A stretch of DNA of 56,051 bases from IMG/VR virus record IMGVR_UViG_3300009163_000041, positions 1 through 56,051 of that record. One strand, written 5' to 3'. Positions within the stretch are counted from its first letter, which is position 1, and each line of letters opens with the position of its first letter. Positions 35,700-50,860 of this stretch are shown in pieces. Source of the DNA: a virus. Taxonomy: Duplodnaviria; Caudoviricetes. The notes under the pieces are model-generated. The model was given only the letters and a program-made list of their open reading frames with translations. It ran no database searches and was not told the origin of the DNA. The position numbers and the translations under genes are program-made.

Positions 35700-36244
35700 T
35701 TAATCTTTAACCAGCAATCTCGTATAATTTCTGGGGCTTCAACAAGCTCATCCACGGCACGAATTACTCCGCTATGTGCCAAAATATAGTCATGCCCAGC
35801 AAGTATTCCTCCATTTTTAACCTTTGGCATCCAAGCAAGAATGTCTGCCTTTACCGATTCGTACCTGTGGTCTGCGTCTATAAAAACCGCATCCAGAGAT
35901 TGGTCTGCATACATTTTTGAGGCCGAAACGCTGTCAGTCCTAATCGGATTGATAAGATTTATAACTGGCCGAAGATTATCGATAAATGTTCCGAAAAGAG
36001 AGTTTTCCTTTATGTCGCTCATATCCTTATGCTCGTCTGAGCCAGACCAAGTATCTACGACATCAATGCGTAGCTTTTTGTGTTGTGCCTCAACCGCAAG
36101 ATAAGATGTGCTTGCCCCCTTCCATGCCCCAACCTCCACGATATGACCTCCCTCTGGAACAGATTCAACGATTCTCTTGTAAATATCTTGATAGTTAAAC
36201 CACTTCTCTCCAAATTTATCATCCATCCAGTAGTGCTGAATCAC
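35696..36244 (-). CDS. Class I SAM methyltransferase (Methyltransf_24-like)
   Basis: VEVGAWKGAS, VDTW, VFIDADHRY, GGILAGHDY. Confidence 0.85.
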   Translation of the reverse strand: MIQHYWMDDKFGEKWFNYQDIYKRIVESVPEGGHIVEVGAWKGASTSYLAVEAQHKKLRIDVVDTWSGSDEHKDMSDIKENSLFGTFIDNLRPVINLINPIRTDSVSASKMYADQSLDAVFIDADHRYESVKADILAWMPKVKNGGILAGHDYILAHSGVIRAVDELVEAPEIIRDCWLKIK

Positions 36245-37920
36245 TTGTTTCGTTGCTCAAATATCTTTTTACCAAGATCGTAGTTTGCAACTGCATTATG
36301 CTTTTGGAATACCTCGTCCTGCGGTGCGTTTGTAAAGAATGGGTTATTATGTTTAAAAACCAAGTCTCGTCCGTCCACTTGAATTTCTTTTGTCCGTAGC
36401 GTGAACTCGTTATCAGAAAAGATGCCACTACATTCTGCGTATTCTGGTGCGAATAAATTGCCTCCCAAGTAGTCAAGAGTAGGCTTTGTGCAGATTGCGA
36501 TGCACAGAAGATCGTCTTTTCTATATCCGTCTGATACCGCAAGGACAGCAGGCTTTGTAGGGTCTGGAAGTCTTTTTCGGATTTCCTCATCCCATCCCAG
36601 CGGAGGAACAAAATCATCAGATACTTGAACGATATACTTGCCCTTTGCCTGCTTTGCACAGGCGTTCCAAGCACCCACACACTTTCCATTCGGAGTTATG
36701 ATCTTCTCATTTCCTCCATACTCATCTGCATCTACATCTACCCCTAGAATGTGCTGAATCTTGTTAGGCTGTTTTGCCATCGCCAGCCAAGCCCATCTTG
36801 CACCTTGAAATCCAGTAGGTCTTGCCGTTGCGTGGCATAGCGTAATATCAACCTCACCAAAGTTTTTAACTTTATCTTCTTGCAAAAACTTAACCAAAGC
36901 CTCATCGCCTAATACTCTTGCACAACGCTCATAAAGGTCTGGAGCCTCCCACTTGTAAATAGCTTCTTTTGTAGTCCAGTATGCGATATTAGGAATTGGA
37001 ATTGAACAGGCTGAACGAGCAAGAGCAAGTGCTTCTATGTAGTGTTTTCGAGTGTAGTAATCCTCTGCAATGTAGAATAGTGCCTCGATTCTATGTGGGG
37101 CGAGTGCGTATGCACGAAAAAGCTCCTCACGCTTTGCTACTGGGTCAGAAAGAGAGCGACCAACAATAGTGTGACATTGAACACGAAGAATTGGATCAAG
37201 TGTTGCGTCAGCTAATGCAGTTTTTGCGTGTTGCATCGCTTGATCATACTTTCCAGACAAAAAGTATTCCTCTGCTTTGTAAAAGCGAAACAGATAATTT
37301 TCACGGATAGCTTCGTCTAAAATCCTGTGGTTTCTCGTTACGCTTGAGCCTTTGTGATCTATCGGTGCGTGAGTGATGAGACCAGTGTGTGTTCCAAGTG
37401 CCTTTGCACCTTCTGTGGATGTTGGCTTTAGTTGTTCGTGAACTGGATATTTCCATTTGAACTTTTTATTACGAGTTATGCGTTCACGGACAGGACACAG
37501 GCCAGCCAGAGGAACGGAATATCCAGCAAAAATGCAGTCGTGATCAGTTACCTTTTCGGCTATCGCAAAGAAAGCTTTTTCAGATCCTTCTGGCAGAATA
37601 TCGTCTGCATCAAACCACATACAGAACTCTTTCGTGCAGGCTTCTAGTGCCGTGTTTCTTGCGTCTGCAAAATTATCCAGATGCTCCCAATGACTAGTAT
37701 CATCTTTATTTTTATAGACTACTACTTTTGCCCCAAGCTTACTTGCTATTTCATTAAGAATCGGAAGCCCTTCTTCCGTGTGCTTGCCCATCGCAGAGCA
37801 AAGCACGATTTCGTCTGGCTTTAGTGCCTTGAAAGACTCCAAGGCTCTTGTGATATACTTGGATGCACACTCCCTAGATACGATTGCGTAAAGGGATAGG
37901 GTAAATGGGAATCTGTCCAT
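36241..37920 (-). CDS. GT2 glycosyltransferase + TPR + second GT-A domain
   Basis: FADARN.AL...WFDADD, W..PVHE, TPR-like helices, QVSDDF.PP.GWD, DNEFT. Confidence 0.8.
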   Translation of the reverse strand: MDRFPFTLSLYAIVSRECASKYITRALESFKALKPDEIVLCSAMGKHTEEGLPILNEIASKLGAKVVVYKNKDDTSHWEHLDNFADARNTALEACTKEFCMWFDADDILPEGSEKAFFAIAEKVTDHDCIFAGYSVPLAGLCPVRERITRNKKFKWKYPVHEQLKPTSTEGAKALGTHTGLITHAPIDHKGSSVTRNHRILDEAIRENYLFRFYKAEEYFLSGKYDQAMQHAKTALADATLDPILRVQCHTIVGRSLSDPVAKREELFRAYALAPHRIEALFYIAEDYYTRKHYIEALALARSACSIPIPNIAYWTTKEAIYKWEAPDLYERCARVLGDEALVKFLQEDKVKNFGEVDITLCHATARPTGFQGARWAWLAMAKQPNKIQHILGVDVDADEYGGNEKIITPNGKCVGAWNACAKQAKGKYIVQVSDDFVPPLGWDEEIRKRLPDPTKPAVLAVSDGYRKDDLLCIAICTKPTLDYLGGNLFAPEYAECSGIFSDNEFTLRTKEIQVDGRDLVFKHNNPFFTNAPQDEVFQKHNAVANYDLGKKIFEQRNK

Positions 37921-38020: not shown

Positions 38021-38983
38021 TTACGAAGCGGAGTAAGAGGTCGTGATCAACTGCATCGCAGTAGAGTCGATGACCTTGACCACACGATTCGAACGCACCC
38101 GAAGGATGTTCGAACGGCGACCTTCATCACGATAGCTCTCAGCAACGAAAGGAGCAGAAGCATCTTCGCTCCAGACAATCGTGCGACCCGCACCACCAGA
38201 GGCGAAATCGCCACCAGCAGTTTGACCAACCGCCACATAGGTTGTGGGGAAGATGAACGAACCGCTGAAGGTCTGACCTTTAGCCGCGCTGTTCTTAGCC
38301 GCTTTTCCAACCAACACTTTTTCAACGCCAGCCGCTTGAGCGATTTCAACTTCCGACAACAGACGGCGAGAGTCAGTCGCAACAACACCGAAGAACTGAT
38401 TCTGTGTCAGCGGAGAACGCCGAACGAGATCAAATACTTCTTGATTCATAACAACCGTGTTGGCGATCACACCCTGCTTCAGCAAACGCTGTTTAGCAGC
38501 TGCGACATCGGCCACAAAGTTAATCGTGGAGAGGTTGGTAACAGTGTAGTTGACCAAAGCGGCGGTTGCGGTGAAGGTGCTGGCATTAAATAGGGTTGTC
38601 GCACATTCGGCTTCGTGCCCAATTTGAATGTTGCGGAGAAGAATCTTCGCAGTTTCAGTCTCCAAACCGAAGAAGCGAGATACATCCGAAGCCAACGCAT
38701 CTGGTACAACCTCTTCCAAGCCGTATTCCACGCATGTGAAATTATCGTTATCGAACGCCCTCGAAGAGCGAGGATATGAGCTGCCGGGAGCCACCAAGGA
38801 GGCATCGCTGTTCAAAAGTTCAGCGTTGCCCAAGTTAAGCTTGAGGTACTGTCCAGCACGAACTGGGCTGTTGTAGATCGGGAACAAATCGGTTCCGATA
38901 AATCCCTGATCTGCTTGGCTGGCCTGAATGACCGCCGTTGTGATGTCGCCACGAAGAGTGGCGTTAGAGGTTAGATAAGACAT
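38021..38983 (-). CDS. Major capsid protein (lambda gpE-like)
   Basis: 320 aa after decoration gene; LFP, ANTVVM...FD.V pattern; GAAAGGA RBS; strong terminator. Confidence 0.8.
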   Translation of the reverse strand: MSYLTSNATLRGDITTAVIQASQADQGFIGTDLFPIYNSPVRAGQYLKLNLGNAELLNSDASLVAPGSSYPRSSRAFDNDNFTCVEYGLEEVVPDALASDVSRFFGLETETAKILLRNIQIGHEAECATTLFNASTFTATAALVNYTVTNLSTINFVADVAAAKQRLLKQGVIANTVVMNQEVFDLVRRSPLTQNQFFGVVATDSRRLLSEVEIAQAAGVEKVLVGKAAKNSAAKGQTFSGSFIFPTTYVAVGQTAGGDFASGGAGRTIVWSEDASAPFVAESYRDEGRRSNILRVRSNRVVKVIDSTAMQLITTSYSAS

Positions 38984-39373: not shown

Positions 39374-39907
39374 TTAGAAGCTTTTGCTAAAGCCACCAGC
39401 GGAAAGCTCTTTCCGATATTGTTCTGTGTATTTTCCAACACAAAGACGAAGAGCTTCGCCCTTGGAGATGTTATTTGCTTTCATCTCAAAATTGACTAGT
39501 TCCGAAAAGGTTTCTGGCTTTTTCTCGTTAACAGCGGGAGCCGAATGAGAAATAGGAGCCGACACCATCTTGGAGAGTTCGGTGCGGATTTCATTCAGCA
39601 CACCAGAAAGCTCGATCTTGCCAGCCTCAACAGCAGACATTTCAGCTTTTTCTTCTCTCTTTTTCTTGGCCTGTTCCGAATAAGGAAATGCACCCATATC
39701 CTCAGTAGGATTACCTTCAGCACCTTTCTTATCGATTTTAACAGCAGGAGCAGAAGCTTTTTCATCAACAACAGCTTCAGTCGAAGGATTCATTTTGGCT
39801 TCGAGGGCAGATAGGCGGGTAGCAAATTCTTCCATATACTTCCCGAAATCTTCCATGTTATAAGAAGGTGCAACCTTCTTTTCGGTGGTGTCAGTCGTAG
39901 TTTCCAT
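39374..39907 (-). CDS. Nested in-frame scaffold (internal start METTT)
   Basis: TTGACA 39925-39930 lies 17 nt before in-frame ATG; lambda C/Nu3 arrangement. Confidence 0.55.
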   Translation of the reverse strand: METTTDTTEKKVAPSYNMEDFGKYMEEFATRLSALEAKMNPSTEAVVDEKASAPAVKIDKKGAEGNPTEDMGAFPYSEQAKKKREEKAEMSAVEAGKIELSGVLNEIRTELSKMVSAPISHSAPAVNEKKPETFSELVNFEMKANNISKGEALRLCVGKYTEQYRKELSAGGFSKSF

Positions 39908-40903
39908 ATTACTCAAATTAACCTTGTCAACTACTATACGACCAGAATCCGCTGAAAATAAACCTGTTGGGTTAGAAGCGGGGTGCTGAACTAGGTCTGC
40001 GGAGTACAATTCAGAACACCTCGCAAGGTCAAAATTTGACCCATTTAGCTCTGATTCTCCACTGAACGAAATCGAAATCCCAAACGCATCTGGGATCTCG
40101 GAGGCCAGATCCATGTAATATTTTGCACGATCTTGGCGACTCTTGAGAAAAGTCAAATCAGCGAGAAGTTTGCTTCCGCTTTCGTCAATTCTGAAGTTCG
40201 TGAGTTTGCCGATAATATCAGCAATCCCTGCTCCGTGATTTTCATTTACCTTTACTCCACCCTTAAATTGCTCTGCACAATTCTTAACCTGTTCTAGGGT
40301 GGTGCCGTCAATTTCAAGCTGATGGCCTTTTGCCATGCCTGTAGTTAATACCGAAACTCCTTTTAGGGTCATATTATCGCCCTCCTCGTAGTTATAATTT
40401 TTCTTTTTAGATGCACCCTGTCCTTGAATAACTGCTGTGGGAATCGTTCCCGCTGGCGCACCGCCACCAGAAGTTCCTCCAGCAGAGGTCATCAGATCCT
40501 CTTCTTCGTACTCAGAGGTAGATCTTCCAATGGCTGGCTCAATATCCGTAGAATCGCTTCCCGACTCGCTATTGTTTTGTAGATCCTCTTCATTATTATC
40601 AAAAATCTCAGATGCAATTTCAGCACGATCAGAGGCATCGGGGAACAGCCCAATCATGCCCTCATCAGCCACGAAACGACCCATAAACTCTGCAAATGTC
40701 TCGTCCTCGCTAGGAGTTAAAAGAGTGCTATCAGATGCCAAATTCTTCTTTTTCTGCTTCTTTTTGGTTTCCCTAAAGATGCTTGCCCCTACTGCATACC
40801 GCTGTTTATTATCCGTATAGTCCTTAACGGCAGTGGAGTTACCCATGAATTTTGACATGAAATCAGCGAGATTCTCGCCTTTTTTGGGGGTAGGTAGGGG
40901 CAT
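39374..40903 (-). CDS. Prohead protease-scaffold fusion with N-terminal repeat region
   Basis: AKGH...D, NHG..I..IIG, FGISISF, SADLV..PA.NP.GLFS; coiled-coil C-terminus. Confidence 0.75.
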   Translation of the reverse strand: MPLPTPKKGENLADFMSKFMGNSTAVKDYTDNKQRYAVGASIFRETKKKQKKKNLASDSTLLTPSEDETFAEFMGRFVADEGMIGLFPDASDRAEIASEIFDNNEEDLQNNSESGSDSTDIEPAIGRSTSEYEEEDLMTSAGGTSGGGAPAGTIPTAVIQGQGASKKKNYNYEEGDNMTLKGVSVLTTGMAKGHQLEIDGTTLEQVKNCAEQFKGGVKVNENHGAGIADIIGKLTNFRIDESGSKLLADLTFLKSRQDRAKYYMDLASEIPDAFGISISFSGESELNGSNFDLARCSELYSADLVQHPASNPTGLFSADSGRIVVDKVNLSNMETTTDTTEKKVAPSYNMEDFGKYMEEFATRLSALEAKMNPSTEAVVDEKASAPAVKIDKKGAEGNPTEDMGAFPYSEQAKKKREEKAEMSAVEAGKIELSGVLNEIRTELSKMVSAPISHSAPAVNEKKPETFSELVNFEMKANNISKGEALRLCVGKYTEQYRKELSAGGFSKSF

Positions 40904-40948: not shown

Positions 40949-40962
40949 GGTTGGGCAGTATT

Positions 40963-41712
40963 GTGCCCCTTTCGATAAATCACCTATTAGCTTTAGATTG
41001 GAAAACTTGGGTATGCAGAAATAATCCAGCCGATGCAAGCCCAGTAAGTATTTTTGCTTTTAGTGATGGTGTGACAACTCAAAACAAGACACTTTGGGAT
41101 GGGCTTCCTGTTGTTTGGCAACATCCAACAACGGCAACAACACTTTCAATTGTAACTACAGCCACTACTGCGGATACAGGCGGGAAGATTTTAATAAACG
41201 GCCTAGATTCAAATTGGAACGCAATTACAGAATCCATTACTCTTAACGGAGTCACTCCAGTTGCTACCACGAATTCATTTATTAGAGTAAATGGATTGTC
41301 GATGACCGCACCAGCCAGCGGTGGAACTACGAATGTTGGAACAATTACAGCAAAGGCAAACTCAACTACTTTTGCACAGATCAATCCCACCATCGGAAGA
41401 ACGCAAGCTGGTATATATTCTGTTCCTAATGGATATACTTTGTATGTTTATTCTGTCGATTGTTATAGCGGTGATGCTGGGAGTGGAACAAATTATGTCA
41501 CATTTAATGTTGCGGTAACCCCCAATGCATCTCCTACGCCAGTAACTTTTGATCTTCTTCAGACAACTTGGCTTGGTAACTTTTCAGTTCAAAGGATTGT
41601 TCCCCAAATTCAATACCAGAAAACAGATATTGAGTGGCAGTTTAAAGTAAATAGCGGAACGCAAAGCGTCAGCCTTATCGTGCAGGGAATGTTGCTGAAG
41701 AACGCAGACTAG
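40963..41712 (+). CDS. Thr-rich beta virion-type protein, inverted
   Basis: I.GLD.NW..ITE.ITLNG.T.V.T...F.RVN, N.GTIT, YSVP.GYTLY; GTG start inferred. Confidence 0.7.
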   Translation: MPLSINHLLALDWKTWVCRNNPADASPVSIFAFSDGVTTQNKTLWDGLPVVWQHPTTATTLSIVTTATTADTGGKILINGLDSNWNAITESITLNGVTPVATTNSFIRVNGLSMTAPASGGTTNVGTITAKANSTTFAQINPTIGRTQAGIYSVPNGYTLYVYSVDCYSGDAGSGTNYVTFNVAVTPNASPTPVTFDLLQTTWLGNFSVQRIVPQIQYQKTDIEWQFKVNSGTQSVSLIVQGMLLKNAD

Positions 41713-42940: not shown

Positions 42941-43453
42941 CTAGATTACATTATCCAGAGCCGTTTGGCAAGAAGAATCTTTAGTTGGCTTGACGCATTT
43001 TTTGTAAACTTCTGGGTGAAACTCCTTCAGGTACTCAAGCTCATTTCTTGTTGTCTCAAGCTCGCCCCTGTTTAGGTTTAATTCGTATTGAGCGTGATGG
43101 GTGAGTTCGTGAACAAGCGCACATAGGATCTGAATTTCCCTGTCCACCTTCAGCCCTGTTGTGGCTTTTTTGGAAACATTCAACGATTTTTTATCGTATA
43201 AATACAGATCATCTCTTGTGCCAATACAGGTATTGGGAGCGAGATATTTACCGCACTCCACTTGATTCCTGTAATATCTGGATCTGCTGTAACTACCGCT
43301 AAAGATGTATTCGGTAGTGGTGAAGTCCACGGAAGGATATTTGACCTGTAGCCAGCTTACCGCTTTTTCAATGAATGCTGGGATTTGATCTACAAGCCCT
43401 CTTGGTACTGAGTTTCGAATGGTTACTTTGGGGTTGGTTTGGTTGTTTGTCAT
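42941..43453 (-). CDS. Zincin-like metallopeptidase-motif protein
   Basis: LVHELTHHAQ (HExxH) plus downstream E; leaderless start MTNNQ. Confidence 0.65.
   Translation of the reverse strand: MTNNQTNPKVTIRNSVPRGLVDQIPAFIEKAVSWLQVKYPSVDFTTTEYIFSGSYSRSRYYRNQVECGKYLAPNTCIGTRDDLYLYDKKSLNVSKKATTGLKVDREIQILCALVHELTHHAQYELNLNRGELETTRNELEYLKEFHPEVYKKCVKPTKDSSCQTALDNVI
42943..42971 (-). promoter_or_regulatory. Early promoter with palindrome
   Basis: TTGCCA-17-TAATCT; TCCAGA-GCCGT-TTGGCA. Confidence 0.75.
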
Positions 43454-43459
43454 GGTGGT

Positions 43460-43488
43460 ACTGTACATCATTCCAACCCGCTTGGCAA
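43460..43488 (-). promoter_or_regulatory. Early promoter with palindrome
   Basis: TTGCCA-17-TACAGT; TTCCAA-CCCGC-TTGGCA; ATG 6 nt later. Confidence 0.85.
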
Positions 43489-43535
43489 GCATTATTTAAT
43501 CTTTTTTTACCCTCTAAAATTATTTTATTTTGTTG

Positions 43536-43564
43536 TTGACTTCGAAGCCGTTTGGCAGTACACT
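43536..43564 (+). promoter_or_regulatory. Divergent early promoter with the same palindrome
   Basis: TTGACT-17-TACACT; TTCGAA-GCCGT-TTGGCA; ATG 6 nt later. Confidence 0.85.
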
Positions 43565-43570
43565 CCTCCC

Positions 43571-44422
43571 ATGATCAAAAACATCCAAGACATCCAAAAG
43601 CTGAAACCCACCGAAATTCGCAAGCTCTCGAAAGCCGAACTGGAGGAGATCGTTCCTCTTATTCGTGCCGAGTACAAAAGATATAAGTCGTTCGCCAGTC
43701 TCATTGAAAATGATTCCGAACGGCATGAAGCTGTAAATACAGAATTTCGGCTAGATGAGTTGTATCGTGCTGGGCAGAGTCGCTTGGAGAAGTATGCCAA
43801 GGAAGAGCGCAAGGCTCTTCGTGAGTCCAAGCAGAATTCCAAGGAGATTGAGCGCAAGCGGATCGAGGATCTTGCCTCCACTCTCCGCAAGAACTTGGTT
43901 CCTGTTGAGAATGCTCTTGTTAAATCAATCATTGAGCGTGACAACATCCGACTCGGAAAACAGGAAGAATTCTTCAAGTCGCTTCCCACCCCCTATGTGG
44001 TCAAATTCATTTATGGCTACTCGGACAAGAAGGATGAATTCGACTACAGCGTTTTCAGCCAAGAGTATCGCCGTTTCTGGGAAACGGAACGGTTGGCAAA
44101 CGACTTTCCTCTTCGCAGGGAGCAAGTCACCAAGAAGTTAGAACTGGACGCAAAGATCGAAAAAGATGCAAAAGACTATGCCAAGATTGCCTGTGACGAG
44201 TTTGCGTTCAAGATCGTGCAGAAAACAGAGAAGGAGATCAAAGAGCGTGGCACTGATGACAAGATCGTTTCGACCTCCTACGAGGGTAATGTGAATCCTT
44301 GGGATGGCGGTCAGGTGATCGTCACCACGACCAAGGGCAAGTATGTCTGGAACACCAAGGTCATCCTGAACTTCTCGAAGTACGGACTACCCTTCAACCA
44401 GTGGCCGACTCGGTTGGCCTAG
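43571..44422 (+). CDS. Early hypothetical protein
   Basis: Leaderless start MIKNIQ; C-terminal I.N.SK.G..F.QWPTR. Confidence 0.75.
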   Translation: MIKNIQDIQKLKPTEIRKLSKAELEEIVPLIRAEYKRYKSFASLIENDSERHEAVNTEFRLDELYRAGQSRLEKYAKEERKALRESKQNSKEIERKRIEDLASTLRKNLVPVENALVKSIIERDNIRLGKQEEFFKSLPTPYVVKFIYGYSDKKDEFDYSVFSQEYRRFWETERLANDFPLRREQVTKKLELDAKIEKDAKDYAKIACDEFAFKIVQKTEKEIKERGTDDKIVSTSYEGNVNPWDGGQVIVTTTKGKYVWNTKVILNFSKYGLPFNQWPTRLA

Positions 44423-44541
44423 TCCTTCTTGGAATCTTTGGTCTTCTTGATCTCTTTGAGTGCTTCGATCATGTTGTCCAGAGATTTGTCATCACGGCTG
44501 GACAATTCATCTGCCAGTGGATCAGTCGAAGAGGTTGCCAT
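44419..44541 (-). CDS. 40-aa charged peptide overlapping the polyprotein stop
   Basis: Read by hand: MATSSTDPLADELSSRDDKSLDNMIEALKEIKKTKDSKKD. Confidence 0.45.
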   Translation of the reverse strand: MATSSTDPLADELSSRDDKSLDNMIEALKEIKKTKDSKKD

Positions 44542-47500
44542 GGGTTGCCTTTACTGGAGCAGTGCCTTTGCTCCGATCTGCGTTTCCGTCAAGAGAGTAA
44601 CCGATGTCGGCTATCTCCTCAGAGGTAATTTTGTTCCAAGTGTTCCTAGCTTGTTGGGCTGATCCCTTGATGTAATTGTAGGGAACATAGCGTCCATTGG
44701 GTTTATTGAATCGCTTGGAAGCTCTGGTCAAAGCCACTTTATCATCCACATCCACATGAACTATCCCGATTTTATATCCAACCGATTTTAGAGTTTTTGC
44801 CATGTCTGCAACCTTATTAGAGTTTTTACCAGTGATGTCGATCAAAAGATTGTGATTTTCCATAACTGCCCTTGGGAATACGATCTTCTCGGATATAAGC
44901 GCAGACTCCTCATGGAACGCACCAGCATTCCAGCCCTCAAATCCTTTTGACTTACCCTTAACGGAATCTGGATCGATCTTAGTTGTTTCTTTTCCGTTTA
45001 GGATCTTTTCTGCAAATGGTCTTCCAGTAGTCGTTTTCCCGCTGGCTGGAGATCCCATGAGAATTACTGCAATAGGATTGTCCGACTTGGCTTTGGGATT
45101 CAGTTCGCTTTCAATAACGGAATCCTTCCACGCCTTGTGTTCTGGGGTTGGGTTTTCAAATGTTTCTACGATGTCTTTCTTCTGGATGTATCGCTTGGGA
45201 TCTCTCAGCGACCAATGGGTTACTGGGGCATTCTCCGAACCCTCTGCTTCGGCAACTTCCTTTTGCAATTTGGCCATCTTTTCAATTGTTATTTTAGTTT
45301 TTGGCTCTGCATTTAGTCTTTCAATCTCTTTTTCAATTTCATCAATTGTAGTGCTTGTTTCGGATTCTTCCTCGCCTTTGGATGATTTCCCCTTTGCCTT
45401 TCCCTTGGCTCCTCCACCGCCCCCCCCACCCTTCCCAGACCATCTTCCCTTTTCATCCCTTGGCTGATCTGGATTGTAAAACTCGATTTTCTCTCCGTTG
45501 TATTGGAAAACGAATGATTCGATTGCTACCGCTTCGTCAAACTGGAATCCCTCGGAACCATCATCTGGAAGTTCAATCACGATGGGTACATAAATCAACT
45601 TACTTCCATCTGCCAACTCTTTTGTCGCCACAGGGGATGGTTTGGGGCCGTTCTCGTAAACATATTTCCTAATCGAATCGACCTCGAAGATCTGCATTTT
45701 TTTGATGGCACTTGGAGATACTGCGCCGTCCTTGGTAAAGATTTTTGACACAGCCGCCAGCCCAGTTTTGCCCATCTTTTGAGCCTTGGTTGTTGGGATG
45801 TTGTCGGCAACGCTTTTAAATCCATCTGCCAATACGCTGATAATCCCGATCATTTGCCTCCCGCCAATCTTGGGCGATGACCCAGAACGCAGTACGCCGT
45901 ACTCCATGGCTAGATCCAAACTGTCCGTGCTGTACACCTTGCCACCACCCCAAACGCCACTTTTAGAGGGTTTTAGGCCGTCTCTTCGTATGTCTTTAAG
46001 CACATCTGCTGAAGTTCCGTGATAAAGGGTAGTTGCCTCCCCAGTCTTTTTGCTTGCCTCCGCTGGATTATCTTGCGCCCACCTTGGGGTGGGTGTAGCT
46101 CCTTCAGCTATTGCTCCACCCCCAGTCCACTTTCCAGAGTTATCTCTCTGTTGGTTTGGATCGTAGAAGTCTATCGCTTGATAGCTCCTGTAATAATTAC
46201 GCCCTCCCCATCGTTGTACTCCGAGGCGAACACGATTCGGGAAAGATCGCTCATAGTTGTCGATGATTGATTTGTAGGCTTTTTTTCCTGCAATCCTTGT
46301 GTCTCCACCGATGAACTCTCCGACTCCCCTGACTGCTTCTGATTTTCCATTTATTGCTCCTAGAAATTTGGCAACATTAGCGGTCAACTGCGATCCTTGG
46401 TCTAGGATTGTTACGCTAGTCTTGGCTCTGTCGCCTACCATTGTTCTAAAACTAATCCCATTGTCTGACAATATTTTTCTGACCTCATCCATTGGCCTGT
46501 CTGCTGAGATTTTATGCAGAATATCGGGACCGTCCTTCTTCTTCTGAAAGGCGACAACTGCCTTTTGGTTTAGGCTCGCCCCCAGCTTGGATGCCGTGTA
46601 TTTAAGTTGATCAAAGTCCTTCACTCCCTTTACATCGATCTTAATCGAATTCTCTGCCCCATCTTCCCAGTCACCCACCCCAGACTCGACCTTCCCATTC
46701 ATGTCTTGCTTTTTGATGGCATCTCTTGCGATGCTAACGGCTCTCGCATGTTCGGGCGAATCGATCATCTTTTTCGCCTCTTCGTAATTCATGTTCTCTT
46801 TAATGTTTGGAGAGACAAGGATTTCACCGCCAGAACCACCACTACCAGTCCACTTGCCAGATGCATCTCTCTCTTGGTTTGGATCGTAGGCGAAAGTAGT
46901 TACCTCAAATGTCTTCTTTCCCTCAATCTCTTCACGAATGGCAACTGCAATTGCATCTGCCAAGTAGTCTGCCACATCGTCCATGTCTGGATCTTTTTCG
47001 AGCGTTACAACATTACGGTTTGCCGACATGGGGCGAACCCCGATTCCCTTGCGTACTATGTTTGATACTTGCCTACCGCCTTCAACTTTTCTGTATTCGG
47101 CTACTGCACCTTTTACGAATCCCCTAAATGCAGATTGACCAGCAACTATACCCCCTAGTTGTGGGTTAATTAAGGCTCCAATAAGAATCTTATACCGATC
47201 TCCGTGTGCGCTTTTTATTGCCTCAATGCCTCCTTGAGATCCGATGCTGATCGTTCTAGCAATCCCACGCAAAAACTGCTGGCCGTTGTCACTAGCAAGC
47301 CAATTTTTGATCTGATAGGCTTTAGAAGCCCCATATTGGGTAGCCATCTTAGCTCCATTCGCAATAGCTGTAACGCCCTTTATAGCCCCTTTTACGCTCG
47401 ATTTTGCCATATCTAGGGCTGGATTTCCCCTTTGAGCCTTCTCGATGAGCTTGCCCTTGAACCCACCGCCACCACCACTCCATTTGCCAGACTCGTCTCT

Positions 47501-47947
47501 TTCCTGTGATGGATCGTAAAGCAGTGTTGCCCCTTGTTCCTTTAGGGCTAATAGATCTGCCTTTAATTGTTCGAAGTTGGTCTTGTCGGTAATCGGACCC
47601 CCAACTATCCATGCATCGCAAGTTCTCAGTGAGGCGCATTTAAAATCAAAGATTTCGCAGTAACCCAGATCGCCAGCTTGCTCAACTTCCTTTGCATCCA
47701 TCCCAATCCCCTTTGTAATACATCCGATAAGCCTTGTTGTCTGGTTGAATCCAGCGCAGTTCCCGCAACGCATCGTCTTGGCTTCTTTAACCGATCCACC
47801 AAAGATCTTTGCTTTCGCCGTCCAGTATTCCTCATTCGGCTCCTTGGGATTGGCGGGGCCGTAATGTGCTACATCAATAGCCTTCTGCCGATTGGCTAGG
47901 TTGGTTTTGATGTCCTGTGTTGGGAGTGGACACTTACTCTCAGCCAT
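44522..47947 (-). CDS. Multi-module head-associated protein (HiPIP-like, SAM-lyase-like, ART-like, zeta-kinase modules separated by YDPxQxRDxxGKW repeats)
   Basis: Repeats at aa 144, 354, 595, 824; CGNC..C..C..CDAW; GDW.DG.ENS...LNQKAV; LYHGTS...VYST; MGSPASGKTT, IDPD, HEES, GRYVP. Confidence 0.8.
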   Translation of the reverse strand: MAESKCPLPTQDIKTNLANRQKAIDVAHYGPANPKEPNEEYWTAKAKIFGGSVKEAKTMRCGNCAGFNQTTRLIGCITKGIGMDAKEVEQAGDLGYCEIFDFKCASLRTCDAWIVGGPITDKTNFEQLKADLLALKEQGATLLYDPSQERDESGKWSGGGGGFKGKLIEKAQRGNPALDMAKSSVKGAIKGVTAIANGAKMATQYGASKAYQIKNWLASDNGQQFLRGIARTISIGSQGGIEAIKSAHGDRYKILIGALINPQLGGIVAGQSAFRGFVKGAVAEYRKVEGGRQVSNIVRKGIGVRPMSANRNVVTLEKDPDMDDVADYLADAIAVAIREEIEGKKTFEVTTFAYDPNQERDASGKWTGSGGSGGEILVSPNIKENMNYEEAKKMIDSPEHARAVSIARDAIKKQDMNGKVESGVGDWEDGAENSIKIDVKGVKDFDQLKYTASKLGASLNQKAVVAFQKKKDGPDILHKISADRPMDEVRKILSDNGISFRTMVGDRAKTSVTILDQGSQLTANVAKFLGAINGKSEAVRGVGEFIGGDTRIAGKKAYKSIIDNYERSFPNRVRLGVQRWGGRNYYRSYQAIDFYDPNQQRDNSGKWTGGGAIAEGATPTPRWAQDNPAEASKKTGEATTLYHGTSADVLKDIRRDGLKPSKSGVWGGGKVYSTDSLDLAMEYGVLRSGSSPKIGGRQMIGIISVLADGFKSVADNIPTTKAQKMGKTGLAAVSKIFTKDGAVSPSAIKKMQIFEVDSIRKYVYENGPKPSPVATKELADGSKLIYVPIVIELPDDGSEGFQFDEAVAIESFVFQYNGEKIEFYNPDQPRDEKGRWSGKGGGGGGGAKGKAKGKSSKGEEESETSTTIDEIEKEIERLNAEPKTKITIEKMAKLQKEVAEAEGSENAPVTHWSLRDPKRYIQKKDIVETFENPTPEHKAWKDSVIESELNPKAKSDNPIAVILMGSPASGKTTTGRPFAEKILNGKETTKIDPDSVKGKSKGFEGWNAGAFHEESALISEKIVFPRAVMENHNLLIDITGKNSNKVADMAKTLKSVGYKIGIVHVDVDDKVALTRASKRFNKPNGRYVPYNYIKGSAQQARNTWNKITSEEIADIGYSLDGNADRSKGTAPVKATHGNLFD

Positions 47948-49956
47948 TATTCGCTCCGTGCTTTGTCCAGTTGACCGACAATCTTTTTAGCCCTTGATAG
48001 TCCAGCATCACCGCCCCATCCCATGTATGCTTGCCATCCTTTGCCTTGTTCGCTCCATGTCGAACCCTTCTTGTCCACTTCATGCCGTGAAAGGAAGCTG
48101 TAAATCCTACGCCAAGTGCGGGGAGAAAGCTTTTTGCGTCCGATAATGTCCCTAGCTCTTGCGATTCCAACCTGTGTCATTCCACGCTGGCTGGCTGGCT
48201 TTTCAGCTCTTACCCGCAAGGCAGACTTGGCAGACTCGACCATCCCATCACTAGGGTAAAGATCAATATCAGAGATGCTCTGCATCTCGATTGCGTCCAG
48301 TACCATTTCTGCATCTTGTGTTGTAAATTCTTTTGATGTGCTTGTGCGCCTTGCCCTAGATGGAACATAATCATCCTCTAAGTGCTGTTGCTTTATCTTT
48401 GCTACTTCTTCTTTAGGCTGTTGATCTGGAGCCTGTGGCTGTTCTTCTGGTGCTGGTACTGGTGCTTGCGCCTGTGGGAACGCTGGCATTGATGGCTTGA
48501 AAGCCTCGGAAATAGATTCGATTGGCACATCCATCTCTTTTGAAAGATCCTTGGCAAACTTAACCTCATAGGCTCGTTGCCGTAGTGCCTCTTCATAGTC
48601 CTCTCCTTTAGCTCCGTACACCTCAGCAGCCGTTCTTAGCCCCGCCTTAAACTCGCTGATATTTGCTTGTGAATCGCGGCCTACATCAATGGTGCTATCT
48701 GAAGGGTAAATCCACTTGCCCTTTGTGAAATTGCTATTGGGCGGGATTTTGCCCCTAGAAATTCCGTCTGCGATTACCAAGTTCTTGATCTTATCAAAGA
48801 AGCGATCTTCTAGGATATTCTGCCAACGCTTGAATGTGCGTGAGGCCAGAGCCATCTCAAGTCGTACAGTTGGACCCCCAAGCTTGGAGAGATCGTAGCA
48901 GAATCCGAATGGAAGATTAAAGGCCAAGGCAATCATGTGAACGATCAGATCCACATACCCTTGAAAAGCTGAAGATGGGCGATTGCTTTCAAACATTTTC
49001 ATCTCAGAGCCAGTAGGGATATAGTTAATTTGACCCCTCTGCATGTTTTCAATGTTCATCGTATTACCATACGAATCTGTCTGCGCTTGGTTAAAGTAGG
49101 ATGCGGGATCGTCGGAAGATCCTGTCGCATTCGAAATTGTCATAATTCGGAAAGCCGCGTTTTTTACGGCAAGGTTTTCTGCATCCATGGTTTCAGCAAG
49201 ATCCTTGCAATAGTTAATAACAGAGGCCAGATGACTACGACCACGAACCTCATCCAGCCGTAGGGGATCGTAAATAAATAGGAAAGACGATGCGGGTACT
49301 TCTTGTGCGTCCGTATAGAAATTGCCCTGCGTCCGTCGATAAACTTTGTATGATTCAGTGCGTCCGAATTTGTCAAACTTAACTCCACCAATGTATTCTT
49401 GGCTAGAGGTTGGGTTGTCGAACATGCCTCCGATGCGATCAGCCTCTACGGCTTGAATTCGAATATCACTGTTAGGATCTACTTGATCTCCAATTGACCT
49501 CTCTCTAGTGATCACGAACCCAACATCGCCGTCACGAAGTACAGAACGAAGAGCAAGATGAGACAAGGCGTGGAAATTATTCCTACCAAAAAAGTCGCAC
49601 TTCCTTCCCCAAGCCGACCAGTAATCCTCATATATCTGATCGATATTTCTATCTCCAGTTCGAGACATATATCTGAAATTACCAAGGGCATACTGCGAGA
49701 ATTTCAAAAGGATAGATCGGATGATTGGATTGTTGTCTTCCAGATCACGACCAGCTTTAATCAATTCAATACGCTCAAATGTGGAATTGTATCCCTCACC
49801 ACCAGACAATGGCCGTGATGGCAATCTGTCTCTAAGGGGATATGCTCCAGCGAATCTTGTTAATTCGGTGAGCTTGCACTTATCGGCAAGTCTTTTTACC
49901 CCGAATTTGGGATTAATCGCAGTAAGAGCTTTTTCAAAAAAATTCAGACTAGGCAT
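47947..49956 (-). CDS. Lambda-family portal protein with C-terminal extra domain
   Basis: R.L..NNP, LRDGD, EADRI, GGV.FD.FGR, R...VRG; TAATG coupling to next gene. Confidence 0.9.
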   Translation of the reverse strand: MPSLNFFEKALTAINPKFGVKRLADKCKLTELTRFAGAYPLRDRLPSRPLSGGEGYNSTFERIELIKAGRDLEDNNPIIRSILLKFSQYALGNFRYMSRTGDRNIDQIYEDYWSAWGRKCDFFGRNNFHALSHLALRSVLRDGDVGFVITRERSIGDQVDPNSDIRIQAVEADRIGGMFDNPTSSQEYIGGVKFDKFGRTESYKVYRRTQGNFYTDAQEVPASSFLFIYDPLRLDEVRGRSHLASVINYCKDLAETMDAENLAVKNAAFRIMTISNATGSSDDPASYFNQAQTDSYGNTMNIENMQRGQINYIPTGSEMKMFESNRPSSAFQGYVDLIVHMIALAFNLPFGFCYDLSKLGGPTVRLEMALASRTFKRWQNILEDRFFDKIKNLVIADGISRGKIPPNSNFTKGKWIYPSDSTIDVGRDSQANISEFKAGLRTAAEVYGAKGEDYEEALRQRAYEVKFAKDLSKEMDVPIESISEAFKPSMPAFPQAQAPVPAPEEQPQAPDQQPKEEVAKIKQQHLEDDYVPSRARRTSTSKEFTTQDAEMVLDAIEMQSISDIDLYPSDGMVESAKSALRVRAEKPASQRGMTQVGIARARDIIGRKKLSPRTWRRIYSFLSRHEVDKKGSTWSEQGKGWQAYMGWGGDAGLSRAKKIVGQLDKARSE

Positions 49957-49959
49957 AAA

Positions 49960-50385
49960 TTATTTCTTTTGACAACTGCCCTGCTCGTATGGCTTAACCC
50001 CTGCGACTGGCTCGTATCCTTCCCAGCATCTTCCCTCTTCTTTGCCCATGTTTTCATTTGTAGCCTTTTTTCTCGGAATCTCAATATTAAACCCAAGCTT
50101 CTCAATATATTGGAGAGCATCATCGTAATAGTGTGCAACAATATTTGTGTCGGTTGTTGGGGGTATCTTGGTATTCACTTGGTAAGCCCTAGCAATACCT
50201 TCTTTAGATTGTTTTAAAAGCTCTTCTTTTATGCGGTAATATTCAGCTTTATCTTCTTCGTTTGAAGGATGCTCTGCCCTTGTAATCTTATGAGAAAGAT
50301 CCATGAGTTGTTTAAATAGTGTGATTGCCTTGCTTGAATCTCCAAGCATTACAAGGGCTTTATCAATCAAGTTTAGTATTTTCAT
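49960..50385 (-). CDS. Head-region hypothetical protein with C-terminal CWxGY...C motif
   Basis: RCWEGYEPVAGVKPYEQGSCQKK. Confidence 0.65.
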   Translation of the reverse strand: MKILNLIDKALVMLGDSSKAITLFKQLMDLSHKITRAEHPSNEEDKAEYYRIKEELLKQSKEGIARAYQVNTKIPPTTDTNIVAHYYDDALQYIEKLGFNIEIPRKKATNENMGKEEGRCWEGYEPVAGVKPYEQGSCQKK

Positions 50386-50386
50386 A

Positions 50387-50860
50387 TTATTGAAGTGTTA
50401 ATAAGTACTTTAGCCTGTTTAATTCACCTACCACTCCGTCTCGTAGATTGAGCAAATCGGTGTCGGATGGCTTTACGCTCCGTGTGAATTCGCCCATTAA
50501 AAAGTCGATTGTCTGATTTGCAAGAGTAACTCCAGCTCCATCTGCAAGATTCATAAGAGAGATATTGAAGTTGTTGTTTGCGTAAGCTCTTCCATATCTT
50601 CCGAAATATGTCTCAAGAAGTTCGTCAATTGAATTGCCTAGGATCTCGTAAATCTTGCCAAAACTCTTATGATGACTGAAGCTTTTGGTCTGCCAGTGAT
50701 ATATTCGGAATTGATTCTGAGTGTAAAGTAACTGCATTACAATGACTTCCGCATTGTTCTTTGGGGAAATCTCTGTCAAAACCTCTACTGGAGCTTTAAC
50801 AATTTCAAAATCGTTTTTCATCTTATCCACTTTTTCAATCATTTTATCGAGATGATTCAT
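50387..50860 (-). CDS. Ferritin/Dps-like protein (DUF5856-like)
   Basis: HWQTKSFSHHKSFG..Y...D.L.E.Y.G.YGR; L.N.RD....LN...YLLTL. Confidence 0.8.
   Translation of the reverse strand: MNHLDKMIEKVDKMKNDFEIVKAPVEVLTEISPKNNAEVIVMQLLYTQNQFRIYHWQTKSFSHHKSFGKIYEILGNSIDELLETYFGRYGRAYANNNFNISLMNLADGAGVTLANQTIDFLMGEFTRSVKPSDTDLLNLRDGVVGELNRLKYLLTLQ

Follow-up and report, generated by a model that had tools for sequence, protein, structure and literature searches.

The window, that is, the whole 56,051-nucleotide stretch analysed here, comes from a virus of the Caudoviricetes (IMG/VR record IMGVR_UViG_3300009163_000041). It carries a head-assembly block in the order terminase and portal genes, polyprotein gene, protease and capsid genes, so that the polyprotein gene is flanked by genes for TerL, portal, protease and capsid protein. 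The features that concern us in this block are as follows.

49960..50385, minus strand: 141-aa gene 5' of the portal gene; homologues in relatives have a C-terminal copy of the tag described below and an additional module
47947..49956, minus strand: portal protein, lambda family, 669 aa (PF05136, E 6.6e-47; phrog_21, E 3.5e-52)
44522..47947, minus strand: putative polyvalent cargo polyprotein P0001, 1141 aa, an open frame without internal stop
39374..40903, minus strand: predicted prohead protease P0002, 509 aa, with an N-terminal extension and C-terminal scaffold-like helices, assigned by fold
38021..38983, minus strand: major capsid protein, 320 aa (phrog_1005, E 7e-27)

The TAA of the portal gene overlaps the ATG of the polyprotein gene (taATGg), which bears out the TAATG coupling reported in the earlier note, and each of the 21 related loci with both genes has the polyprotein gene directly 3' of the portal gene and on its strand. 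The region downstream of it varies among relatives; in the window the downstream ORFs have no family matches, and an immunity gene was not recognised beside the polyprotein gene.

Pfam and PHROG searches with P0002 gave no match, and its assignment comes from the predicted structure. The AF2 model of the core domain has a pLDDT of about 90, and Foldseek against the PDB finds T4 gp21 (5jbl, E 1.9e-3), with herpesvirus proteases among the weaker matches. Matches in BFVD are stronger (1e-10 to 1e-5), numbering 162 at E <= 0.001 and including named capsid maturation and prohead proteases, and the His and Ser of P0002 are invariant. The predicted fold is that of the T4 gp21 and herpesvirus assemblin prohead proteases, with protease activity likewise predicted; a protease had been proposed at this gene, and the model agrees and adds the scaffold-like helices.

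The polyprotein itself is divided by four copies of a 13-residue tag.

47519..47947, minus strand: module M7, N-terminal, seven Cys, 'HiPIP' in GenBank phage records (aa 1-143)
47480..47518, minus strand: tag 1, YDPSQERDESGKW (aa 144-156), LL before, SGGGGG after
46889..47479, minus strand: Gly linker and module M1, Gly/Ala-rich, helical (aa 157-353)
46850..46888, minus strand: tag 2, YDPNQERDASGKW (aa 354-366), FA before, TGSGGSGG after
46166..46849, minus strand: Gly linker and module M3, alpha/beta, possible SAM-lyase-like fold (aa 367-594)
46127..46165, minus strand: tag 3, YDPNQQRDNSGKW (aa 595-607), DF before, TGGG after
45479..46126, minus strand: linker and module M0, possibly ADP-ribosyltransferase-like (PARP/Tpt1-like) (aa 608-823)
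45440..45478, minus strand: tag 4, YNPDQPRDEKGRW (aa 824-836), EF before, SGKGGGGGGG after
44525..45439, minus strand: Gly/Lys linker, coiled stretch and module M4, predicted zeta-toxin-type kinase (aa 837-1141)

The tag consensus in this ORF is Y[DN]PxQxRDxxG[KR]W. The four copies with their Gly linkers, the five unrelated modules between them and the lack of a MuF domain had all been described from the DNA, and each description holds: coordinates and flanking residues are exact, clustering by sequence keeps the inter-tag segments apart from one another, and neither PF04233 (none at E <= 1 in Pfam) nor TIGR01641 is found. A strict regular expression finds no further copy in the six frames of the window, where 4e-6 chance matches are expected from six-frame residue frequencies, and none of 20000 shuffles of the ORF matched it. 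Because the four DNA copies differ from one another at synonymous positions, the tag is evidently conserved as a peptide and not as DNA. The stretch at tag 4 also matches phrog_12708 ('head maturation protease') near its N-terminus, at positions 3-41. AF2 models the whole polyprotein poorly (mean pLDDT 46.5); the low-confidence regions of that model, taken with the module boundaries in relatives, suggest that the tags lie outside the folded domains.

A firm function can be assigned to one of the five modules, the kinase. M4 matches Zeta_toxin PF06414 at E 9.8e-18 (64.7 bits; curated cutoff 22.3), its Walker A motif is GSPASGKT, and Foldseek returns, at E 5e-8 to 2e-4, zeta (3q8x, 1gvn) and PezT (2p5t), all three with probability 1.00, as well as AvrRxo1, so that the prediction of a zeta-toxin-type kinase is a strong one. 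The resemblance of M0 to ADP-ribosyltransferases (ARTs) is weak. Pfam PARP is reached at E 0.05 in the window's own protein and at up to E 9.7e-6 in homologues from relatives, which also match PTS_2-RNA (E 0.0068), and the RNA 2'-phosphotransferase model NF002013 gives E 0.0059, all these profile matches being below curated cutoffs; the HGTS and YST motifs are invariant, the third catalytic position is E or D, and the model here is of low confidence. For M3, which has no Pfam match, a SAM-lyase-like fold is a weak lead from structure prediction: Foldseek finds phage SAM lyases 6znb (E 2.5e-3, TM 0.49 over 120 columns) and 6zm9 (E 9.8e-3) with a model whose pLDDT is only about 60-70, and Atlas feature matches to S-AdoMet_lyase clusters score 0.78, under the 0.9 mark. 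M1 occurs in 78 inter-tag segments of relatives; Pfam, Atlas and standalone-homologue searches with it were empty save for one 611-aa protein, and no hydrophobic stretch of transmembrane grade was found in it. The seven Cys of M7 are invariant, its tblastn matches, in uncultured and lake phages, are genes annotated 'high potential iron-sulfur protein', and in 26 of 26 portal-type matches it is fused to the portal C-terminus. A protease domain was not found in the polyprotein.

Searches for the polyprotein returned 157 homologues. Tags number one to six in 91 of 94 relatives, and across these 94 the cassettes are inserted, deleted and reordered exactly at the tags, with modules that cluster cleanly. 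The order is M7, M1, M3, M0, M4 here and leader, M0, M1, M2 or leader, M0, M3, M4 elsewhere. The additional modules of relatives (GNAT and others) are flanked by tags in every case, and domains in relatives also include ADPrib_exo_Tox, zeta and, in relative P0020, ART-PolyVal PF18760 (E 7.6e-17). Reuse of the tag with different modules between copies, which had been predicted for related phages, is thus what these relatives display. At the level of sequence, each cassette after the first module consists of tag, Gly-rich linker and module. A tagless joint also exists, in relatives where ART and the Cys-rich module are fused without one.

The tag extends far beyond this lineage. A profile search matched 3291 protein-cluster representatives at E <= 0.001, of which 475 reach 1e-10 and 32 reach 1e-30; single proteins have as many as 10 tags, and the median spacing is 246 aa. 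The tag occurs in 43 IMG/VR stretches and in at least 120 genome stretches, and the hosts among the matches listed range over Actinomycetota, Alphaproteobacteria and Bacillota. Judged by its sequence, the tag is a peptide-level signal common to thousands of phage and prophage proteins. In prophages it follows portal, MuF or protease domains and precedes toxin domains. Pfam was run on 107 tag-bearing genome ORFs among the matches listed: the carriers comprise 24 matches to four portal families, 5 MuF, 2 DUF2213 and 1 ClpP, and the toxins comprise Tox-REase-5 (8), RNAse_A_bac (4) and ADPrib_exo_Tox (3), with CDI toxins, EndoU, PBECR, Acb1 and zeta as other families. A similar motif had been named in the earlier note for MuF-linked phage toxins; the same motif is indeed present there, and in portal-linked proteins even more often. 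The Cys-Cys motif CGTGxGGFxxGNxC was considered as a second header type.

Homology tends to end at the tag. Among 92 pairs with homologous pre-tag parts, the post-tag parts are unrelated in 76; 90 of 168 upstream-derived alignments stop between residues -5 and +50 relative to the W of the tag; and, for 9 unrelated proteins with several tags, 6 of 7 assigned domains fit inside one inter-tag interval. The tag may also stand near the start of a protein: 55 of 145 representatives have their first copy no more than 30 residues from it, and 14 of 95 upstream-stop-closed genome ORFs among the matches listed have theirs no more than 15 from it. Some tags come 2-5 residues after the start codon, and a PHROG head-protease family has the tag at its N-terminus. 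Of 555 tags, 490 have D, S or N at position 2 and 417 have P at position 3; within the polyprotein's own family, E, S, A or D takes the place of this Pro in some copies. The 12 residues that follow are Gly/Ser/Thr-rich (G 25%, S 13%, T 12%).

The reading that we favour, at a probability of roughly 0.55, sees in the tag a cargo header that is read as the head assembles, with the capsid-carried modules being swapped at headers. The polyprotein would be carried in the capsid near the portal and would leave with the DNA; the header would get its module into the head, retain it there and/or allow its release as a separate piece. Because all cassettes share one header, recombination could swap, add or drop modules with delivery kept. 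The modules (the zeta-type kinase, the ART-like enzyme, possibly the SAM lyase) would act early in the infected cell, and we infer their injection and anti-defence roles. Placement of the polyprotein inside the head draws on context, namely gene position, the M7-portal fusions and the company that the tag keeps. Of the earlier interpretation, then, the modular chain, the reused tag and the prohead protease stand, and its head location is argued from context only. Portal fusions keep the tag even though a loading signal would be redundant there, and therefore loading alone is an insufficient explanation.

A bolder version of the header reading is more tentative. It takes the tag as a portable, near-universal cargo header of tailed-phage capsids, read by a conserved feature of the assembling head, so that whichever protein follows it would be loaded and later delivered with the DNA, and serving as a socket for swaps of counter-defence and toxin modules, with CGTGxGGFxxGNxC as a second, interchangeable header. 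Neighbours of tag-bearing genes did not yield a single common partner family, and the tag is present with ClpP-type, S78-type and DUF2213-type proteases and with differing portal families; a conserved reader is hard to name for these reasons. Some tag-bearing genome ORFs resemble ordinary toxin-immunity pairs (an Imm52 neighbour), and so the tag may not be limited to capsid cargo.

It is rather unlikely that P0002 cuts just 5' of each tag to give five head proteins, with the tag as the new N-terminus and as a loading or ejection signal. This proposal has in its favour the prohead protease fold with its invariant His and Ser, and the upstream residues in this lineage, where 103 of 126 distinct contexts have F or L at position -1, E or D is frequent at -2, and I, T or V stands at -3. 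In addition, where the gene is split in relatives, the split lies about 13 residues before the tag and a leader of the 'SYNSKKIEF' type is retained. Outside the lineage, however, the tag is conserved but its upstream residues are not; where a tag lies 2-5 residues from a start codon, there is nothing in front of it to remove; and a tag that accompanies differing portal and protease families is a poor fit to a site for the protease of one lineage. A different candidate maturation cut site is available, at two places in the window.

40424..40438, minus strand: TAVIQ at the joint of N-extension and protease core in P0002, candidate maturation cut site
38924..38938, minus strand: second TAVIQ, aa 16-20 of the major capsid protein, likewise a candidate cut site for maturation

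The motif PAGTIPTAVIQGQG is found at the former joint in 60 of 120 P0002 homologues, and capsid proteins of relatives have TALIQG or ALIEAP at the latter position; a shared 5-mer equally near the capsid N-terminus arose by chance in 63 of 5000 shuffles. TAVIQ followed by G or A is the only motif common to the capsid N-terminus, the protease-scaffold protein and polyprotein junctions of relatives, and it is the likeliest candidate for this lineage's protease site. It is unlike the tag or its upstream residues and is absent from ORF 44522-47947. One relative's polyprotein does have TAVIQG at a module joint, so that the protease probably has access to chains of this kind.

Somewhat less probable again is that the tag has no part in capsid loading and serves mainly as a handle, for boundaries or for recombination, in a polymorphic-toxin system, perhaps with a role of its own in release (self-cleavage or a hairpin stop). 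The breaks of homology at the tag in most related pairs, the gain, loss and permutation of cassettes there, the toxin domains that follow and the immunity-like neighbours would all fit, as would positions 2 and 3: Asp-Pro and Asn-Pro are labile linkages, and a Ser is able to attack the bond before it. Yet the free variation of synonymous sites argues that DNA identity is not what is conserved, the Pro is replaceable in the polyprotein family, and N-terminal tags on standalone proteins and on a head protease family would be unexplained.

An improbable alternative is that the tag acts during exit or after ejection, either as a site for a conserved host protease or as an unfolded leader (hairpin plus Gly linker) by which modules are threaded through the portal and tail channel. 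Conservation from Actinomycetota to Alphaproteobacteria and Bacillota, among the matches listed, would be easier to account for by a factor common to all hosts, or by a physical constraint, than by diverse phage proteins, and a flexible Gly/Ser/Thr-rich stretch always follows the tag. Against this, the host factor cannot be named, and a head maturation protease family also begins with the tag; no ejection of head maturation proteases is known. Finally, a late cytoplasmic multi-enzyme with the repeats as mere linkers, to which the single firm assignment (the kinase) would be no obstacle, is very hard to reconcile with the conserved gene place between portal and protease/capsid genes, the fusion of the first module to portals, the strong association of the tag with portal, MuF and protease proteins, and 13 near-invariant residues that far exceed what a linker needs.

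Polyvalent effector proteins and those fused to portal or MuF domains are already known from genomics, and the polyprotein, with its place in the head-assembly block, is a phage-type polyvalent protein in the sense of Iyer, Burroughs, Anand, de Souza and Aravind (2017, J Bacteriol; PMC5512222). As there, unrelated effector domains are joined in one polypeptide among the virion genes of a portal-terminase phage: at least two effector-type domains are present (zeta firmly, ART weakly, and three more modules), the setting is one of virion and packaging genes, and the domain repertoire is shared, namely ARTs (ART-PolyVal in a relative here), a zeta-like kinase and GNAT. That paper describes portal- and MuF-fused effectors and predicts their packaging and injection, with release proposed via internal zincin metallopeptidase domains, whereas the polyprotein here has none. 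No conserved inter-domain tag is described in the text of it that was searched, and no description of the tag was found in the literature searched on such proteins. The locus is tidily built, a header being followed each time by a flexible linker and then a module, and this bears on how phage cargo is recognised, loaded, freed and swapped.

The MuF polymorphic toxins of temperate phages (Jamet et al. 2017, PMC5576092; Zhang et al. 2012, PMC3482391; Bxa, PMC11699363) likewise place a variable toxin end on a head-internal carrier, with homology that breaks at the joint. The main text of Jamet et al. (PMC5576092) mentions no motif, linker or cleavage. Some MuF proteins have the same tag between MuF and the downstream domain; the polyprotein differs in having no MuF, a portal as its carrier link, and several modules instead of one toxin.

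MARTX-type toxins are secreted bacterial toxins in which swappable effector modules in one chain are freed as pieces after delivery, by means of their own cysteine protease domain; the polyprotein differs in that a protease domain was not detected. The VENN motif of CdiA marks the boundary between conserved delivery parts and the swappable toxin ends behind them, and is, like the tag, a short conserved peptide at such a boundary. This boundary theme is treated in general for polymorphic toxins in PMC3482391. Motifs of the VENN type belong to secretion systems and not to the phage head, and the tag is repeated per chain and also N-terminal.

The capsid signal of T4 is N-terminal only, is confined to T4-like phages and is removed by the T4 protease, whereas the tag is also internal, is repeated, comes after portal, MuF or protease domains, and keeps its sequence in phages of very different kinds. 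The internal proteins of T4 are diverse anti-defence proteins whose sole shared part is this capsid targeting sequence, which brings them into the prohead and with which foreign proteins can be loaded (PMC3012670). The likeness, a short conserved peptide at the head of otherwise unrelated proteins, is one of analogy. If the header proposed here suffices for loading, it would be a general handle for packing chosen proteins into phage capsids; the T4 targeting sequence is a comparable handle in T4 only, and thousands of protein families, with hosts from Actinomycetota to Proteobacteria, share the proposed header in conserved form.

The ORF at 44522-47947 (minus strand) lies in a complete virus record of 56,051 bases (100% complete by the CheckV estimate, G+C 43.7%) and encodes 1141 residues. 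As the earlier note had reported, it contains four copies of the 13-residue tag Y[DN]PxQxRDxxG[KR]W, each followed by a glycine-rich stretch, and its start codon overlaps the stop codon of the gene upstream, as expected from the claimed coupling to the portal. A motif pattern search of the whole window in six frames found no fifth copy. The number of tag matches expected from composition is 4e-6, and none of 20000 shuffles of the ORF yielded a tag. The DNA of the four copies differs at synonymous sites, arguing that the peptide is the conserved level of the tag. No near-identical match to the polyprotein region was found in cultured phages. The N-terminal module and the tags are located as follows.

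47519-47947, minus strand: M7, Cys-rich N-terminal module, annotated HiPIP in GenBank phages
47480-47518, minus strand: first tag
46850-46888, minus strand: second tag
46127-46165, minus strand: third tag
45440-45478, minus strand: fourth tag

The tags split the polyprotein into five modules (M7, M1, M3, M0 and M4, from N- to C-terminus). M7 (aa 1-143) has seven invariant cysteines and resembles lake-phage genes annotated 'high potential iron-sulfur protein'. M1 (aa 157-353) is helical and Gly/Ala-rich; the Atlas search gave no usable match for it, and outside such polyproteins it was found in one protein only, as a shorter standalone form. A transmembrane M1 was rejected (maximum Kyte-Doolittle mean over 19 residues, 1.19). 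M3 (aa 367-594) may be phage SAM lyase-like, on two separate but weak leads: Atlas features point toward phage SAM lyases with a weak score of 0.78, and a moderate-confidence model matches the phage SAM lyases 6znb (E 2.5e-3) and 6zm9 (E 9.8e-3) in Foldseek. M0 (aa 608-823) is possibly ART-like, with matches that all fall below curated cutoffs. Both profile and fold identify M4 (aa 837-1141) as a zeta-toxin-type kinase. No MuF domain was found in the polyprotein, in agreement with the earlier note. AF2 prediction of the whole chain gave a mean pLDDT of 46.5, with only M3 and the zeta module modelled; the isolated beta-bridges that it places between tag positions 7 and 13 fall where confidence is low, and they are not relied on.

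A protein search with the polyprotein returned 157 matches, and 94 of the 120 matches listed are polyproteins, all but three of them (91/94) with 1 to 6 tags. Segments of the relatives' polyproteins cut at the tags cluster cleanly into module families, which upholds the view that the tags separate unrelated modules. The proposal that related phages carry different modules between tags was also borne out: modules are gained, lost and reordered at tags. An extra module, for example GNAT, sits between two tags in one protein and is missing from a close relative; M3 is missing in one relative, and module order varies among sub-lineages. In many relatives a leader of 12-25 residues is followed directly by the first tag. 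The expectation that module boundaries in homologues coincide with tags held in part: cassettes are bounded by tags, but some joints have none, and in one sub-lineage an ART and a Cys-rich module are joined without a tag. The portal-tied gene follows a cassette grammar of header (the tag), flexible linker and module.

A second motif can take the place of the tag. The same modules are joined in three relatives by CGTGxGGFxxGNxC plus a Gly linker, and some proteins have both motifs.

[DN]-CGTG[AS]GGF[KQ]xGNxC plus Gly-rich linker: Cys-Cys joint motif, in P0034, P0035 and P0042 (proteins of relatives), in loci from L167 on, and at L009:8715-8756 (coordinates within the locus)

The Cys-Cys motif occurs in at least 120 IMG/VR stretches and is very common after portal domains; 67 ORFs that carry it gave 44 matches to portal families, and also matched S78 proteases, MuF and ARTs.

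M7 itself is found on portal proteins in 26 of the 120 matches listed (P0097-P0122), on the C-terminal side, and these portal proteins have no tag; in one of them M7 lies inside the C-terminal part of the portal. The carrier is the portal in these 26 relatives and the polyprotein in others, and M7 seems to be present once per phage, whichever gene carries it. In a lake phage with a cultured host, Actinomycetia phage DSL-LC01 (L165, record 52800-63785), a Cys-rich 'HiPIP' gene lies in the head block, between a 'hypothetical protein' CDS of ~3290 aa and three 'capsid maturation protease' genes.

The tag extends well beyond this lineage. A back-translated pattern found it in 43 IMG/VR stretches, including a MuF-type protein in which the tag precedes an HExxH domain, as well as small proteins starting with the tag. 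A slightly wider pattern found at least 120 stretches in bacterial genomes, and the hosts among those listed are mostly Alphaproteobacteria and Actinomycetota, with some Bacillota and others. When 107 genome ORFs with the tag were searched with Pfam, there were 24 matches to four portal families (one member may fall under two of them), 5 to MuF, 2 to DUF2213 and 1 to ClpP. The toxin families downstream of the tag in genome ORFs include Tox-REase-5, bacterial RNase A, ADPrib_exo_Tox, CDI toxins, EndoU, PBECR, Acb1 and zeta. Among 92 pairs with homologous pre-tag parts, the post-tag parts are unrelated in 76. When 168 alignments starting well upstream of the tag were followed, 90 ended between -5 and +50 residues from its last residue, while 64 continued past the tag and 14 ended earlier.

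A tag profile of 30 columns, built from 78 tag segments and searched against 1.84 billion representatives, matched 3291 proteins at E<=0.001, 475 at <=1e-10 and 32 at <=1e-30; against PDB sequences it gave 0 matches at E<=10. The new proteins among the 150 matches listed have up to 10 tags each (by regular expression), with the consensus [FY][DSN]P[DNS]QPRD[ED]xG[RK]W[TS], and a median tag spacing of 246 residues; in 55/145 no more than 30 residues separate the first tag from the start. In nine unrelated multi-tag proteins, six of seven Pfam domain assignments fall within one inter-tag interval, the exception being a weak match. A very large number of head-associated carrier-toxin proteins share the header. 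A Bacillota MAG has three tandem small genes that each open with the tag (L091:373-1743); two start with Met-Ala-Gly plus the tag, the third has Met-Ala-Gly nine residues after its first possible start codon, and together they resemble a row of cassettes, each led by a header.

The genes around the polyprotein are those of a head block. The gene upstream encodes a lambda-family portal, and a portal gene followed by a polyprotein gene on the same strand was found in all 21 related loci that hold both.

Beyond the portal, further upstream: a 141-aa gene, a DUF5856 gene and the large terminase
Downstream of the polyprotein: a variable run of small genes, then the 509-aa gene, a 117-aa gene and the major capsid protein

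The DUF5856 gene (50387-50860, minus strand), between terminase and portal, is kept in relatives and belongs to a PHROG family with the annotation 'starvation-inducible transcriptional regulator'. The 141-aa gene (49960-50385, minus strand) lies directly upstream of the portal; relatives have it extended by a tag and an extra helical module (L015:2207-3142, L024:7185-8120, L026:4092-5030), and so its product may also be a head-associated carrier. Two long plus-strand ORFs amid the minus-strand block, 43439-44422 (327 aa) and 40951-41712 (253 aa), have homologues in related loci and are therefore probably genuine genes of a variable accessory region. Directly after the capsid gene comes the gene of a 559-aa glycosyltransferase family 2 and TPR protein (36241-37920, minus strand). 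The polyprotein family also occurs on two contigs binned in a Betaproteobacteria MAG (L100:5351-7642, with three tags and a portal upstream, and L054:5223-6428), which may point to the host or may reflect chance binning of a phage contig.

The 509-aa protein (39374-40903, minus strand), which the earlier note had called a protease, has no Pfam or PHROG match. Its core was modelled by AF2 with pLDDT about 90 over roughly 130 residues. Among solved structures, Foldseek ranks the T4 gp21 capsid assembly protease first for the core (E 1.9e-3, TM-score normalised by target 0.50), and herpesvirus proteases come next. At E<=0.001 the core also matches 162 predicted viral structures, some of them named capsid maturation or prohead proteases. 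These fold matches, together with a His and a Ser invariant across 36 aligned relatives, support the protein as a predicted protease-scaffold fusion. The sequence PAGTIPTAVIQGQG lies at the joint of N-extension and core in 60/120 homologues, and also at a module joint in the polyproteins of five relatives. The motif TAVIQ has exactly two copies in the whole window.

40424-40438, minus strand: TAVIQ at the N-extension/core joint of the protease-scaffold protein
38924-38938, minus strand: TAVIQ at capsid protein residues 16-20

The capsid-protein position reads TALIQG in relatives and ALIEAP in more distant ones. Of 5000 shuffles, 63 produced a shared 5-mer this close to the capsid N-terminus, and the sharing is thus a lead rather than proof. 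TAVIQ is a candidate site of maturation cutting, in which Q (E in distant relatives) would precede the cut. T4 gp21 cuts Glu-specifically, and a candidate site with Q or E fits both this specificity and the gp21-like fold.

TAVIQ is absent from the polyprotein ORF. Since the residues before the tags are semi-regular in this lineage, the strict model, in which the phage protease would cut just upstream of each tag, is conceivable here but less likely. In a scan of 149 of 291 candidate ORFs beside the 107 tag-bearing genome ORFs, picked at random, the best 25 of 89 families included terminases and other phage genes and no single protease or partner family. An HExxH ORF two genes downstream of the polyprotein (42941-43492, minus strand; 183 aa, motif HELTHH) was considered as a dedicated processing peptidase and rejected as a conserved partner, because it has no family match and its similarity in related loci is limited to fragments of 38 and 23 residues, in 2/26 of them.

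A header serving as a mere spacer is ruled out, since thirteen near-invariant residues far exceed a spacer's need, and the varying synonymous sites likewise rule out a DNA recombination handle. The tag stands at the extreme N-terminus of many proteins, a head-protease family included, which suggests, by analogy, a signal read in trans. The tag is also kept in portal fusions, which are loaded in any case, and this suggests an additional function, for example in release or exit. A complex prediction of the portal (669 aa) with the first 200 polyprotein residues (M7 and the first tag) scored 0.00 and speaks neither for nor against. The N-terminal positions and the persistence in portal fusions, with neither spacer nor DNA handle left, favour the tag as a cargo header read in head assembly.

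Neither the tag nor the cassette grammar is described in the full-text search results or in the passages retrieved from Iyer 2017, Jamet 2017, Zhang 2012, Bxa and Apk2, with the supplementary alignments of Iyer 2017 a place where the motif might appear; a search with the motif as text was swamped by unrelated 'HPRD' matches. The polyprotein adds a new member to the known polyvalent class. Its chain would travel inside the head and be delivered along with the DNA, as passages of earlier work propose for polyvalent, portal-fused and MuF-fused effectors (PMC5512222, PMC3482391, PMC5576092). As a signal read in trans, the header would resemble the T4 capsid targeting sequence, as presented in passages of PMC3012670.
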